This document shows positions 14,725-56,789 of a stretch of DNA of 64,000 nt, in pieces. Positions within the stretch are counted from its first letter, which is position 1, and each line of letters starts with the position of its first letter. Position numbers and translations under genes: made by a program. The notes beneath the pieces were generated by a model, which saw only the letters and a list, made by a program, of their open reading frames with translations, was not told where the DNA came from and ran no database searches. This DNA comes from Escherichia coli (GTDB taxonomy: Bacteria; Pseudomonadota; Gammaproteobacteria; Enterobacterales; Enterobacteriaceae), in assembly GCF_041248615.1 (NCBI RefSeq), contig NZ_CP158426.1; one strand, 5' to 3'.

Positions 14725-15929
14725 TAATCCACCAATAATTCCAGCGCGCGGTCAACGGCATTCACCAGCGCATCCACATCACTCTTTGTATTATATGGCG
14801 CAAAAGAGGCGCGCAGTGTGCCGGTTACGCCTAATTCTGCCAGTAGCGGCTGAGCGCAATGCTGCCCGGCCCGCAGGGCAATACCGTACTCCGCCAGCAG
14901 CGTCACCATATCGCTATGATGAACGCCAGCAAAATCAAAGGCCAGCAGGCTGGAATCCTGGCAGCGGAATGAACGAAAGCCGGGACGTTTCGCCAGCGCA
15001 TCTTCCGCCAGCGTTGCTAAGCTACGGCTCCAGCTTTCGGCCTGGTTGATATCGTAATCTGCCAGCCATTCCAGCGCCGCGCTTAATCCTATGACACCAG
15101 CGACATTTGGCGTTCCAGCTTCCAGTTTCCACGGCGCAGATTGAGTCGTGAAGCCGTCAAAACTCACTTCGTGAACCATTTTGCCGCCGCCCAGCCAGGG
15201 CGACATCGCCTCCAGCAGTTCTGATTTACCATACAGCACGCCGATACCTGTCGGGCCATACAGTTTGTGACCTGAAAAAGCATAGAAATCAATATCCAGT
15301 TGCTGAACATCCGCGGGGAAATGCACTGCCCCCTGAGCACCATCAACCATCACCACCATCCCGGCTGAATGAGCAAAGGTAATCGCTCGCGCCAGATCCG
15401 GACAACCGCCAGTAACGTTCGACATCTGACCCAACGCCAGAATCCGACTACGGGGAGTAATCAGTTCTGGCAACAAATCGACATCCGGCAGTCGCTGCGC
15501 ATTAAGCGGCAATTTCACCACTTTGGCTCCAGTTTGTTGGGCGACCATCAGCCAGGGGACGAGGTTGGCGTGGTGTTCTGCCACGCTGACAATAATCTCA
15601 TCGCCCGGTTGCAGACGCGGACGCGCATAGCATTGTGCCACCATGTTGATGGATTCAGTGGTGCCGCGCGTCCAGACGATAGTTTTATCATCCGGTGCAT
15701 TCAGTAATTGCGCCACTTTCTCTCGTGCAGCTTCATAACGCGCGGTCAGGCGTTGGGCTTCGGCAAACTGGCTGCGATGGACGTTTCCGGCGCTCAGACT
15801 GTAAAACTGTTGGGTGGCTTCAACCACGGCTTCAGGTTTAAGCGCGGTCGCGGCGCTGTCGAGATAGACGCCCGCATCCTGTAGTGCGGGAAACTGGGCG
15901 CGAAACTGCGCGGGATTAAAAACGTTCAT
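14724..15929 (-). CDS. csdA: Cysteine sulfinate desulfinase / cysteine desulfurase CsdA
   Basis: 401 aa from [16 protein letters not shown]; class V aminotransferase features ([10 protein letters not shown]); the track ORF has a 12-codon upstream extension. Confidence 0.9.
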
Positions 15930-52974: not shown

Positions 52975-53267
52975 TATAAATGTCCCATTAAAGCTGGATA
53001 AATAAATTGACGGCGGCATCGGTAATTTGAGATTCGTTATAATTAAAAACGAACACAGAAAAAATAAGTATAATTTTGGTGAATGTTTTTGACATGATTA
53101 AATCCCTTTACTTTATTTATTTCTGACATAATACGTTACTCCCTTTTATTATTAACGATCTGTTTCTCATTTTTCTTTAAACCTGCCTGTAACAGAATGT
53201 TAATAAGACATGATTGTTGTGGCAGGATCTGCAATAATTAACAATTATCCACTTCACAGAGAATGCT

Positions 53268-53939
53268 ATGCAGTACCCGATTAACGAGATGTTCCAGACC
53301 CTGCAAGGTGAGGGTTACTTTACCGGCGTCCCCGCCATTTTTATTCGTTTACAGGGATGCCCGGTTGGCTGTGCCTGGTGCGACACCAAACACACCTGGG
53401 AAAAGCTTGAGGATCGGGAAGTCTCCCTTTTCAGCATTCTGGCGAAGACCAAAGAGAGTGATAAGTGGGGGGCGGCGAGCAGTGAAGACTTGCTGGCTGT
53501 CATTGGTCGCCAGGGATACACCGCGCGGCATGTGGTGATTACGGGTGGTGAGCCTTGCATTCATGATTTGCTGCCACTGACTGACCTGCTCGAAAAGAAC
53601 GGTTTTAGCTGCCAGATCGAAACCAGTGGTACTCATGAGGTACGCTGCACACCGAATACCTGGGTTACCGTATCGCCAAAGCTGAACATGCGCGGCGGCT
53701 ATGAAGTGTTGTCACAGGCACTGGAGCGAGCCAACGAAATCAAGCATCCAGTGGGACGCGTGCGTGATATTGAAGCACTGGATGAACTACTGGCAACACT
53801 GACCGATGATAAACCGCGAGTCATTGCGCTGCAGCCGATTAGCCAAAAGGAAGATGCTACTCGTTTATGTATCGATACGTGCATTGCGCGCAACTGGCGT
53901 TTGTCGATGCAAACACATAAATATTTAAATATTGCCTGA
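53268..53939 (+). CDS. queE: 7-carboxy-7-deazaguanine synthase (radical SAM)
   Basis: 223 aa with CPVGCAWCDT cysteine motif. Confidence 0.9.
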   Translation: MQYPINEMFQTLQGEGYFTGVPAIFIRLQGCPVGCAWCDTKHTWEKLEDREVSLFSILAKTKESDKWGAASSEDLLAVIGRQGYTARHVVITGGEPCIHDLLPLTDLLEKNGFSCQIETSGTHEVRCTPNTWVTVSPKLNMRGGYEVLSQALERANEIKHPVGRVRDIEALDELLATLTDDKPRVIALQPISQKEDATRLCIDTCIARNWRLSMQTHKYLNIA

Positions 53940-54129
53940 TTAAACATTTATAAGCGTTATAAATGGGTGGAACCTGTAAAGACTTCTACTCATTTATATT
54001 CTTTGTCGCCTCTAAAAAACCTCCATTTTGCCCATCCTGGACTAATCATTATCATTTTCTACAAATTCTGTGGCGTTAATTTTTCGTTGGAGTGAAAATT
54101 ATTACGTCGGAGTTTGGTGGATTTTAGTC

Positions 54130-54277
54130 GGTATAGAATTACTTTAAATATTTGGCTTTTCAATCAATGAATTAAGTGCTCTTTAACATAATGGATGTGT
54201 TGTTTGTGTGTTTCTGTTAAGTTGGTAGATTGTGACTGACTTAAAAAATCAATAATTAATAATAGGTTATGTTTAGT
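54130..54277 (+). promoter_or_regulatory. Putative CRISPR leader (AT-rich) abutting repeat 1
   Basis: AT-rich tract immediately 5' of the first repeat on the repeat-sense strand; no promoter elements were verified. Confidence 0.5.
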
Positions 54278-54672
54278 GAGTTCCCCGCGCCAGCGGGGAT
54301 AAACCGGCTGATGCGGTTCTATCACCACCACAAATTATGAGTTCCCCGCGCCAGCGGGGATAAACCGCAAATACGCGCGAGTGGCTAACCTGGAATCATG
54401 AGTTCCCCGCGCCAGCGGGGATAAACCGGCGCGGACGATAATCAGGGGCAGGCAGGGCACGAGTTCCCCGCGCCAGCGGGGATAAACCGGAAATCCAATA
54501 TTAACGTGGTGTTTTCAAAACGAGTTCCCCGCGCCAGCGGGGATAAACCGCGTTTAGCTCCGCAATGCTGGATATCACTGATGAGTTCCCCGCGTCAGCG
54601 GGGATAAACCGTATGGGAAACAGTAGCAACGGGCACACTGGCGGAGTTCCCCGCGCCAGCGGGGATAAACCA
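54278..54672 (+). CRISPR. Type I-E CRISPR array, 7 repeats and 6 spacers, no cas genes in window
   Basis: 29-bp repeat GAGTTCCCCGCGCCAGCGGGGATAAACCG at 54278, 54339, 54400, 54461, 54522, 54583 and 54644 with 32-bp spacers. Repeat 6 has C13T; the last repeat ends ...CCA instead of ...CCG. Corresponds to the ygcE-ygcF array of E. coli (established knowledge). Confidence 0.95.
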
Positions 54673-55126
54673 CCATATAACCCGTAATCTCTTTCTAAAG
54701 TTTTTATATTAGCAGTACTCGTAATAAGCAACATATCCACGTAACACCTCATGTTCAAAATAGCTCTCCATATATGAGAAGTTCACAATTATCGATACAA
54801 AAAATCAAATTTAATTAAAGTGTTAGTTGTATAATACTTAAATCATTAAGAAATTATCATATATTATTTTTTTAATATTGAATTGATGTTTGTTAGTTTT
54901 TTCTTTAGGATAATAGATTGTTTTTTAAGCTTATTATTCATTGATTAAGTAATAAATCTGGAAATTTGTCTTTGTTTTGAGGCTAATGAGTGGTTTTACA
55001 TAACCGTCTCTATAGACTGTTGATGAATAGTTCTTATGAATAAAGATATCCAGTTCATACTTTAAATGAAAATTGATAAAGTACGGTTTGCGTTGTCTTT
55101 TATTCTAAGGACATCGAGTGTAGTTA

Positions 55127-55265
55127 ATATTCCTTGTAACAACAGGGATAAACCGAACTAGTTAAAGTTTTTATTATGTTCCCTGCATCAGCGGGGATAA
55201 ACCGGACTTGTTATCATTTTTTAAGTTGTCGAACTTATGTTCCCCACGTCAGCGGGGATAACCAT
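55127..55265 (+). CRISPR. Degenerate CRISPR remnant: 3 decayed type I-E repeats with one intact-length 32-bp spacer
   Basis: atgttccctgcatcagcggggataaaccg (55176-55204) and atgttccccacgtcagcggggataacc (55237-55265) flank a 32-bp spacer; a further eroded repeat ...cagggataaaccg ends at 55155. Confidence 0.75.
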
Positions 55266-55310
55266 TCAGGTATGTTCAGGCCGGGCAGTTTCCCGCCCGG
55301 CCTTCCTCAC

Positions 55311-56789
55311 TTACGCATTCGACCAGCTCTGGATCGAATCCGCATTCCCCAATTCACCATGCATCACTTCATACGATTTTTTCAGGATCACATCAGTGTG
55401 CTTGGTTAGGTCTTTGAAAATGCCTTTATTCATCGCGTCGTAGCGTTTGGCGTTGCTCTCAACAGGCATAAAGATATCTTTCACGCGAACCATTTTGTCG
55501 ACAGCCGTTGCGTAATCCGGGTATAGCCCCAGACCTACCGCCGTATTAATCGCTGCCCCCAGACTTGCACAACCATTAATGGCGTTACGGCGTGCCGGAA
55601 GGTTGAACACGTCGGCAAAAATCTGCATAAACAGATCGCTGTTCGAACCGCCGCCAGTAATGATCACATGCTTTGCAAAGTGATTCATTTCATTACACAT
55701 ATTGTCGTAATTGTTCTTCAGCGTCAGCGCCACGCTTTCCAGTATCGAACGATATATCCATGCGTAATCCATGCTGGAATCAAAGCCGATCATAATCCCG
55801 CGTTTGTACGGTTCCCACGGATTGGTCAGCCAGTCCAGCACCGTCATCAGACCATTACAGCCAGGCGGCACACAAGACGCTTTTTTGTTGAGTAAATCTT
55901 CCGGTGAAAGATCCTGTGCTTTGGCATCCTGAATTAACGACTCGCCTAACATGTCGCGCAGCCAGCTCACTGTCCACATGCCTTTGCGGATACCGTAACC
56001 TTCATACAGCAATGTTTGCGGAATAGAAGACATAATCGGCCAGTACGCTACCGGATCTTTCGGCAGTGCTTTGCCGTTCATCATCAACGCGATGTAAGTG
56101 CCAAGAGAAATTACCGCAGTTTCATCATCCAGTAACCCGGCTCCCAGTGCTTCTACCGGTTTATCACTGGTGGTACAAACAACCGGCAGCCCAGCCGGGA
56201 AATGTGTCGCCAGCGCGGCTTGACGAGTGATATGCCCAAGAACAGTGCCCGGCATTTGCACATCAAACAGCATATGACGGGGGATATTAAACTTCTCCAT
56301 GACTGCGGCATCTTCACTCCATGCCCAGGTCTTATAATCCACCGGCCACTGACCAAAATAGTTGGCGATATTGTCTTTAAACTCGCCGGTTAAGCGATGC
56401 GTCAGATAACCCGAAAAAGAGGTGACATATGCCACGTCAGGATTCGTATGTTCGTAAGGGCGTGTAACGCGTGCATCCTGCCAGCTAATCAACGGCGCAG
56501 CTGGCGTGCCATCGGCTTTCAATAACGCACGGCAGCAACGGATGGATCCCAGACCAATACCGACAATATCTTCTTTATTTCCGGCAAACTGACTCATCAA
56601 ATCGTGACCGGCAAAGCATAATGATGCCCATAAATCGTCGTCAGGATGTTCTGCGGTATCGGCATCTGGCGTGTGCATCGGCTGCAATAAGCCTTTGCCT
56701 TCGCAAACCACATTACCTTCCAGATCGTACATCACCACTTTTGTGCTCTGACTTCCACCATCAATCCCTATGATGTATTTTTTCGACAT
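55311..56789 (-). CDS. ygcE: FGGY-family carbohydrate kinase, substrate unknown
   Basis: 492 aa. Confidence 0.85.
   Translation of the reverse strand: MSKKYIIGIDGGSQSTKVVMYDLEGNVVCEGKGLLQPMHTPDADTAEHPDDDLWASLCFAGHDLMSQFAGNKEDIVGIGLGSIRCCRALLKADGTPAAPLISWQDARVTRPYEHTNPDVAYVTSFSGYLTHRLTGEFKDNIANYFGQWPVDYKTWAWSEDAAVMEKFNIPRHMLFDVQMPGTVLGHITRQAALATHFPAGLPVVCTTSDKPVEALGAGLLDDETAVISLGTYIALMMNGKALPKDPVAYWPIMSSIPQTLLYEGYGIRKGMWTVSWLRDMLGESLIQDAKAQDLSPEDLLNKKASCVPPGCNGLMTVLDWLTNPWEPYKRGIMIGFDSSMDYAWIYRSILESVALTLKNNYDNMCNEMNHFAKHVIITGGGSNSDLFMQIFADVFNLPARRNAINGCASLGAAINTAVGLGLYPDYATAVDKMVRVKDIFMPVESNAKRYDAMNKGIFKDLTKHTDVILKKSYEVMHGELGNADSIQSWSNA

Follow-up and report, generated by a model that had tools for sequence, protein, structure and literature searches.

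The closest described system is CRISPR2.2 of Escherichia coli, which is named in passages of PMC4489801, PMC3903273 and PMC10910852, all of which cite Diez-Villasenor 2010. It consists of three degenerate cluster-2 repeats and two invariable spacers (PMC4489801, PMC3903273, PMC3737337), and is carried by K-12, O157:H7 and BL21 (PMC3737337). The CRISPR-II arrays are described as "separated by 0.5 kb", with leaders that adjoin only CRISPR2.1 and CRISPR2.3 (PMC3903273), and a "0.5-kb AT-rich sequence" is said to split the CRISPR2 array (PMC10910852).

The eroded repeats analysed here are this published CRISPR2.2, and the feature was thus already known. They lie in a window of 64 kb, which is the whole stretch of DNA that was analysed; annotation was taken from the chromosome of E. 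coli NRZ14408 (NZ_LT599825.1, positions 1120001-1184000), which is 100% identical to it. The locus agrees with the published element in its site between ygcE and queE (ygcF), approximately 0.5 kb past CRISPR2.3 and adjoining the 3' end of ygcE, in having three repeats and two invariable spacers that are common to strains, and in its sequence, which over 139 bp shares 98.6% identity with that of K-12. It differs in two substitutions that are private to the window, one at R1 position 13 (A/C, the single difference from the R1 of K-12) and the other G10A in R3, and in its rare allele of the AT-rich tract, which is found with at least 99% identity in only 11 genomes. The sequence of spacer S2 was not found quoted in the searchable literature. 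We consider CRISPR2.2 to be, very probably, the frozen tail of the ygcE-queE CRISPR locus, without a demonstrable leader, and not an array that is dying. The features are listed in Table 1, and we use the term relic for R1-S1-R2-S2-R3 and the term tract for the AT-rich sequence that precedes it. The "CRISPR" annotation of RefSeq covers the 7-repeat array alone and omits CRISPR2.2, which annotation pipelines overlook.

Table 1. Features of the CRISPR-II locus between queE and ygcE (window positions)
Feature	Positions	Strand	Description
queE (ygcF)	53269-53940	+	Upstream flank of the CRISPR-II locus; RefSeq annotation NZ_LT599825.1
leader2.3 of active CRISPR2.3	53941-54277	+	337 bp, 31% GC; conserved
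CRISPR2.3 array	54278-54672	+	7 repeats, 6 spacers of 32 nt; last repeat ends ...AAACCA
AT-rich tract	54673-55126		454 bp, 26% GC vs 51% for the window
Better-conserved tract block	55020-55085		Holds inverted repeat TATGAA-N13-TTCATA
R1 (CRISPR2.2)	55127-55155	+	ATATTCCTTGTAACAACAGGGATAAACCG, 19/29 vs consensus
S1 spacer (CRISPR2.2)	55156-55175	+	20 nt, short; invariant across sampled genomes
R2 (CRISPR2.2)	55176-55204	+	ATGTTCCCTGCATCAGCGGGGATAAACCG, 24/29 vs consensus; 3' handle intact
S2 spacer (CRISPR2.2)	55205-55236	+	32 nt, GACTTGTTATCATTTTTTAAGTTGTCGAACTT; the oldest, fixed spacer of the locus
R3 (CRISPR2.2)	55237-55265	+	ATGTTCCCCACGTCAGCGGGGATAACCAT, 22/29 vs consensus; ends ...GGGGATAACCAT; terminal repeat of the whole CRISPR-II locus
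GC-rich hairpin, putative terminator between convergent units	55279-55302		GGCCGGGC-N8-GCCCGGCC, just past the ygcE stop codon
ygcE (FGGY-family kinase)	55311-56789	-	Downstream flank

The relic also resembles two other kinds of CRISPR remnant to different degrees. R3 has the degenerate 3' end that is typical of leader-distal terminal repeats (PMC2886076), and S2, which is common to nearly all strains, corresponds to the conserved spacers of trailer ends, since shared spacers are leader-distal (PMC3903273). Unlike ordinary trailer ends, however, this tail is severed by a 454-bp non-repeat tract, one of its internal repeats (R1) is very degenerate, and one of its spacers is only 20 nt long. Like the orphan CRISPR4.1-2 of cas I-F-negative E. 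coli, CRISPR2.2 is very short, fixed in content and species-wide (PMC5359238, PMC4489801), but it shares its locus with an active array of the same type and, in this strain, is accompanied by a complete cas I-E operon (cas3-casABCDE-cas1-cas2), which begins, together with the CRISPR2.1 array, approximately 16 kb past the window.

Beyond the 7-repeat array and the tract, three degenerate type I-E repeats are separated by spacers of 20 and 32 nt. When the repeats are set in frame with the 29-nt consensus GAGTTCCCCGCGCCAGCGGGGATAAACCG, their starts lie 49 nt (R1 to R2) and 61 nt (R2 to R3) apart, and only the latter distance is the 61-nt unit (29 + 32). R2 carries the changes G1A, A2T, C9T, G12A and C13T, of which G12A and C13T alter the loop, and R3 carries G1A, A2T, G10A and C13T in addition to its degenerate 3' end. 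For R1, support comes from its position, its hairpin and its intact 3' end (AGGGATAAACCG) and handle (AUAAACCG). The locus thus contains at least two direct repeats of approximately 29 nt that match the consensus of type I-E (cluster 2) arrays, and CRISPR2.2 does not show the strain-variable spacer content of a CRISPR array with leader-end acquisition. The preliminary description of this DNA had reported three eroded repeats and an AT-rich stretch after the main array, both of which are present, and its proposal that a cluster of degenerate type I-E repeats and spacers lies between ygcE and ygcF (queE), apart from the main array, is supported. The spacer that it gave as exactly 32 bp does have this length, but the string quoted was 34 nt long, and its last AT constitutes positions 1-2 of R3. 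The 20-nt spacer is a second one, added here to that account.

The preliminary description had itself considered that similarity to the type I-E repeat might be confined by chance to the GGGGATAAACC core. R1 taken alone scores no higher (19/29) than the best two random 29-mers from the rest of the window. For the cluster as a whole, a chance origin is ruled out: the best 29-mer outside the CRISPR locus scores 19/29 on both strands of the 64-kb window (128 kb), and R2 (24/29) and R3 (22/29) are far beyond chance because no other 29-mer in the window exceeds this value. The search pattern, with up to 3 mismatches allowed, gave 0 matches in 100 shuffles, and the 61-nt spacing, the hairpins, the CRISPR-II location and the contiguity with the array in merged variants (such as EC-1639, described below) concur.

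The mutations C9T and G10A, which had been described as lying in the hairpin stem and probably impairing Cas6e processing, both exist, C9T in R2 and G10A in R3, but their predicted effects are unequal. With C9T the stem keeps all its 7 bp, one of them as a G·U pair; the pair-breaking change is G10A. The predicted folding energies are -15.1 kcal/mol for the consensus, -12.1 for R2, -15.1 for the usual R3, -9.7 for the R3 of the window and -7.9 for R1. A 7-bp stem with a 4-nt loop is predicted for the consensus, R1, R2 and the usual R3, and one pair is lost in the R3 of the window. In R1, the hairpin architecture survives through two paired changes, C9U/G18A and C11U/G16A, and through C8U, which leaves a G·U pair. 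The minimum-energy fold of positions 55120-55268 includes all three hairpins. Folding therefore upholds a loss of hairpin integrity for the R3 of the window and finds the stems of R1 and R2 intact, so that impaired processing would apply, at most, to R3 of this strain.

Cas6e cleaves at the 3' base of the stem, and is available in this strain, as the complete cas3-cas2e operon lies further on. With the AUAAACCG 5' handles of R1 and R2 and the hairpins of R1, R2 and the usual R3, Cas6e in cas-positive cells could, judging from the predicted folds, excise a normal 61-nt S2 crRNA in most strains. In the strain of the window, G10A weakens the predicted R3 hairpin and would impair the cut at the 3' end of this crRNA. 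The substitution is absent from 11 other aligned E. coli loci and is private to the lineage of the window strain.

Some three quarters of E. coli genomes carry the relic with hardly any change. With coverage of at least 80%, tract and relic occur together in 4123 of 5426 complete genomes, each time at a single site in the chromosome. S2 is 100% identical in 4048/4062 genomes and has no second site, plasmids included, while 3650/4151 match the window with at least 99% identity over the 110 nt from R1 to S2. The junction of tract, R1 and S1 (80 nt) is contiguous in 4121/4134 genomes, and the one exception that was inspected at the tract/R1 junction is an IS1 insertion. By contrast, CRISPR2.3 varies in length from 335 to 1493 bp across the loci compared. 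Among 12 genomes chosen from along the identity ranking, there are segregating sites at 2 of the 110 bp from R1 to S2, compared with 65 of 454 bp in the tract and 70 in the last 500 bp of ygcE. (Locus L003, from strain HH97, was excluded because its assembly is of poor quality, with runs of C.) The contiguous junction and the fixed spacers mean that the relic has gained no spacer anywhere in the collection. Comparison with the ygcE-ygcF regions of relatives, which had been suggested as a way of finding a longer array, thus shows that the repeat-spacer structure is kept across strains and that no spacers have been added beside the tract. A search for protospacers of S1-R2-S2 among 50,697 phage and 72,556 plasmid records, likewise suggested, returned only repeat matches, mislabelled chromosomes and noise with E > 0.01.

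The preliminary description had also read the tract as the relic's own leader and the whole as an array in the process of decay. That CRISPR2.2 is, or once was, an independent array, now decaying neutrally behind its own leader, is very unlikely. In favour of this reading, the tract is AT-rich and non-coding (longest ORF 31 aa), as leader2.1 and leader2.3 are, lies immediately 5' of R1 on the transcribed strand, and shares the motif TAGATTGT with both leaders. Unlike them, it has no profile homology, conserved leader-repeat junction, promoter-like match or polarised insertion at the adjoining repeat in the genome comparison. E. albertii, E. whittamii and the E69 lineage share leader2.3 at 91-93% identity, and the literature assigns a leader to the CRISPR2.3 position (PMC3903273, PMC3737337) and none to the tract. 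A leader2.3 profile built for nhmmer from the sequences of E. coli, E. albertii and the E69 lineage detects the strain's leader2.1 (E = 0.005) and gives no match to the window, K-12 or E69 alleles of the tract at E <=10. No sigma-70-like site was identified by a consensus scan of the tract's + strand.

Smith-Waterman alignment argues for a relationship between leader and tract: positions 183-324 of leader2.3 align with 150-282 of the tract (window allele) with a score beaten by just 2 of 1000 dinucleotide shuffles (p ~0.002). The similarity fades, however, to p ~0.04-0.07 for the K-12 allele and to p > 0.25 for the E69 allele (two scoring schemes), whereas true homology would predict the reverse. 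A leader ending with the aligned segment would stop approximately 160 bp short of R1, with no vestigial repeats or 61-nt periodicity between; type I-E integration needs the repeat-proximal 40-60 bp of the leader. The polarity is also wrong, since the supposed leader adjoins R1, the most degenerate repeat, and in real arrays the degenerate repeat is the leader-distal one. The uninterrupted tract/R1 junction shows that no spacer was added there. The last ~100 bp of the tract are better conserved than the remainder (11/100 vs 97/345 differences between K-12 and the E69 lineage, p = 3e-4), a point in favour of this reading. Against it, the relic itself diverges approximately 7x more slowly than neutral sites, and is thus not decaying neutrally.

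Other origins for parts of this region were also considered. The tract was rejected as a leader paralogue, given the negative nhmmer search and the allele-specific Smith-Waterman signal, and as a decayed array: its best repeat match is 12/29, which is equalled in 92% of shuffles, its R1-like matches are no better than those in shuffles, and lag-61 autocorrelation is absent. Homologues of the tract were found neither in the window nor in the strain's cas/CRISPR2.1 region beyond E ~0.15, nor on plasmids besides mislabelled E. coli chromosomes. S1 as a decayed duplicate of S2 is not significant (p ~0.06-0.11). A 31-aa ORF at 55066-55161 that runs into R1 was rejected because it has no Shine-Dalgarno sequence, its changes in E69 are mostly non-synonymous, and its C-terminus differs. 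An Rfam search of 53900-55400 gave only a sub-threshold chance match to sX8 inside the main array.

The substitution pattern in the relic is the opposite of ongoing erosion. Between K-12 and the window, CRISPR2.2 differs at 2/139 positions, the tract at 40/454 (Fisher p = 0.002) and four-fold sites of ygcE at 32/222 (p = 1e-5). Against the E69 lineage, a species-level outgroup, K-12 differs at 3/90 positions of the relic, 108/445 of the tract (p = 6e-7) and 64/218 four-fold sites (p = 4e-8), so that divergence in R1-S2 is approximately 7x below that of the tract or of ygcE four-fold sites even at this distance. R1 is identical in K-12 and the E69 lineage (29/29), and S2 agrees at 30/32 positions in the latter. 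When K-12 is compared with the E69 lineage, the block at 55020-55085 shows 1-2 differences in 40 columns, against 10-19 elsewhere in the tract, and it has 3 changes between two E69-like sequences. The number of independent lineages behind these rate tests is small, namely one outgroup lineage and a few deep haplotypes of E. coli, and the region is unusually polymorphic in this species. The claim that the array is in the process of decay is at odds with these values and with the near-identity of S2 and R1-S2 across genomes.

This conservation is not predicted for a purely inert fossil and, together with the Smith-Waterman similarity of the window allele, is what speaks against a frozen tail. 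Purifying selection could account for it, by keeping a functional relic in the form of a conserved S2 crRNA whose target is non-immune or as yet unknown, a small RNA that acts independently of Cas, or a structured insulator between the convergent transcripts of CRISPR2.3 and ygcE, although we regard this as quite unlikely. Beyond the substitution deficits, none of the 15 differences between two E69-like sequences falls within the 131 bp of relic and hairpin; as both flanks are divergent within 100 bp, a recent recombination patch would have to match the relic exactly. Pairing is preserved by all five stem changes in R1, and neither R1 nor R2 has lost its 5' handle. Taken by itself, however, the compensatory pattern in R1 does not reach significance (estimated p ~0.14-0.2), and palindrome-templated mutation could yield it. 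Individual units are dispensable, as S1-R2 is missing in E69 and in loci L099 and L100, R2-S2 in E8 and others, and all of them in B2 strains. No protospacer of S1 or S2 occurs in the phage or plasmid records or elsewhere in the 5426 E. coli genomes, no Rfam family matches, and the relic is equally intact in strains that are said to lack cas genes, such as BL21 (PMC3737337). A related proposal, that CRISPR2.2, perhaps together with the 55020-55085 block, is selectively maintained, for instance as a fixed, species-wide S2 crRNA or a Cas-independent structured RNA from a domesticated repeat-spacer tail, is likewise unlikely.

The history of the locus is consistent with the frozen-tail reading. 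In Citrobacter, Enterobacter, Klebsiella and other genera, no CRISPR was found between queE and ygcE, which are convergent and approximately 40 bp apart, and the locus is therefore an Escherichia acquisition. The 55279-55302 hairpin is conserved across Escherichia, and a similar one occurs in Citrobacter; the terminator scan missed it because it has no T-run. In E. albertii, E. whittamii and the B2 strain HM670, leader2.3 is followed by one to three repeats and a terminal ...GGGGATAACCAT repeat at the ygcE hairpin, and the tract is absent. Since the same repeat ends these tract-less loci, R3 is the ancestral, degenerate terminal repeat of the locus, and S2 is its oldest spacer.

The tract is carried by E69, an Escherichia that is divergent at species level and was deposited under the name "E. 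coli E69"; its ygcE is frameshift-free and 93% (DNA) and 98.6% (protein) identical to that of the window. Its tract is 76% identical, with 27 gap columns in addition to the differences given above relative to K-12, and the neutral benchmark is a divergence of 29% at ygcE four-fold sites. This near-neutral divergence shows that the tract is older than E. coli. The absence of the tract from B2 is probably a secondary loss; for E. albertii, E. whittamii and B2 taken together, the tract may have been missing from the start or have been readily lost later, and it may either have been inserted into a spacer position of an older array or be as old as the array.

Several variants differ from the common arrangement in the tail. 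E8 and others have R1-S1-R3, which is exactly one 61-bp unit shorter. R1-S2-R3 is found in E69, in a related metagenome contig and in an ordinary E. coli metagenome contig. In EC-1639, leader-R-S-R(canonical)-S2-R3 without the tract represents the merged form published as "CRISPR2.2-3". These variants all arise by repeat-repeat recombination.

The locus as a whole can thus be described as follows. The tract occupies exactly one spacer position, and separates R1-S1-R2-S2-R3 from leader2.3 and CRISPR2.3, which are the only part of the locus that is still turning over. No spacers have been added beside the tract in approximately 4100 genomes, and the relic changes solely by occasional repeat recombination, which deletes units or the whole tract, the latter giving the "CRISPR2.2-3" form. 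As the frozen tail of the locus, the relic would have no integration-competent leader-repeat junction and would be ignored by Cas1-Cas2. Any transcription of CRISPR2.2 would be read-through from the leader2.3 promoter, which is reportedly repressed by H-NS in K-12.

As it stands, CRISPR2.2 belongs to the textbook picture of the E. coli CRISPR-II locus, and matters little. Because it is essentially static across the species and beyond, it is a poor model for how CRISPR loci die. Its variants show the tail of the locus to be reshaped by repeat-repeat recombination and not by point-mutational erosion. The relic has a marked deficit of substitutions relative to its flanks, and the 55020-55085 block likewise evolves slowly. 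Selective maintenance, if true, would explain the approximately 7x slower divergence, also between Escherichia species, as well as the compensation in the R1 hairpin, and a selectively maintained orphan spacer would then be a modestly interesting case of CRISPR domestication.

Within the relic CRISPR2.2 locus (degenerate repeats R1, R2 and R3 with spacers S1 and S2), the R1-S1-R2-S2 segment has accumulated approximately 7-fold fewer substitutions than either the adjoining AT-rich tract or the four-fold degenerate sites of ygcE, a shortfall that shows in comparisons inside E. coli as well as in those with a species-level outgroup. The outgroup, CP089930.1, is labelled “E. coli E69” but is a divergent Escherichia lineage at the species level, with ygcE DNA 93% identical and the 3' end of queE about 90% identical to those of the window; a metagenome contig, Ga0209547_100011, is related to it. 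The E69 locus contains leader2.3 (the stretch upstream of the CRISPR2.3 array), three repeats, a tract of 76% identity, and an R1-S2-R3 relic.

The region from the tract through ygcE is unusually polymorphic. The tract allele of the window is matched at ≥99% identity in only 11 of 5426 genomes, most genomes being 90–95% identical to it, and 14% of ygcE four-fold sites differ between the window strain and K-12.

When K-12 is compared with the E69 lineage, one block of about 60 nt within the tract, which includes an inverted repeat, shows just 1–2 differences in every 40 columns, as against 10–19 for the remainder of the tract. Constraint on this block is uncertain because a second E69-like contig has three changes there.

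Features of the CRISPR-II locus and neighboring DNA (window coordinates unless stated)
Feature	Position	Description
yqcG	52988-53129	small gene; annotated frameshifted pseudogene in window strain
Hairpin	53958-53998	strong, stem ~15 bp; -17 kcal/mol, z = -4.0; immediately 3' of queE stop codon
CRISPR2.3 variant repeat	54583-54611	C13T
Polymorphic region	54673-56789	tract through ygcE
Conserved block	55020-55085	~60 nt, in AT tract
Inverted repeat	inside 55020-55085	TATGAA-N13-TTCATA
R1-S1-R2-S2	55127-55236	slowly substituted
Hok/Gef family toxin gene	L015 (larger chromosomal region) 15371-15523; NZ_LT599825.1 1191370-1191522	outside window; between cysH and cas3 in window strain

On the queE side, the hairpin is probably the queE terminator, and it falls within the stretch called leader2.3. 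The small gene yqcG is annotated in other strains as a cell envelope stress response protein. In the array itself, one CRISPR2.3 repeat carries a loop variant (GCGTCAGC) that is fixed in the CRISPR2.1 repeats of the window strain and in R2 and R3.

“E. coli” SCPM-O-B-8794 has a 141-bp spacer between queE and ygcE without any repeats. In Escherichia sp. MOD1-EC7003, a short array with a truncated terminal repeat is preceded by unrelated, coding-looking DNA rather than by leader2.3. Strains 2013C-3181 and ZYB62 have a truncated ygcE fused to queD, representing a deletion of approximately 10 kb that adjoins the relic, and ZYB62 also has an IS26 insertion inside S2. The deletion in these two strains agrees with the queD-to-CRISPR2.2-3 deletion published for O156:H8 (PMC5359238).
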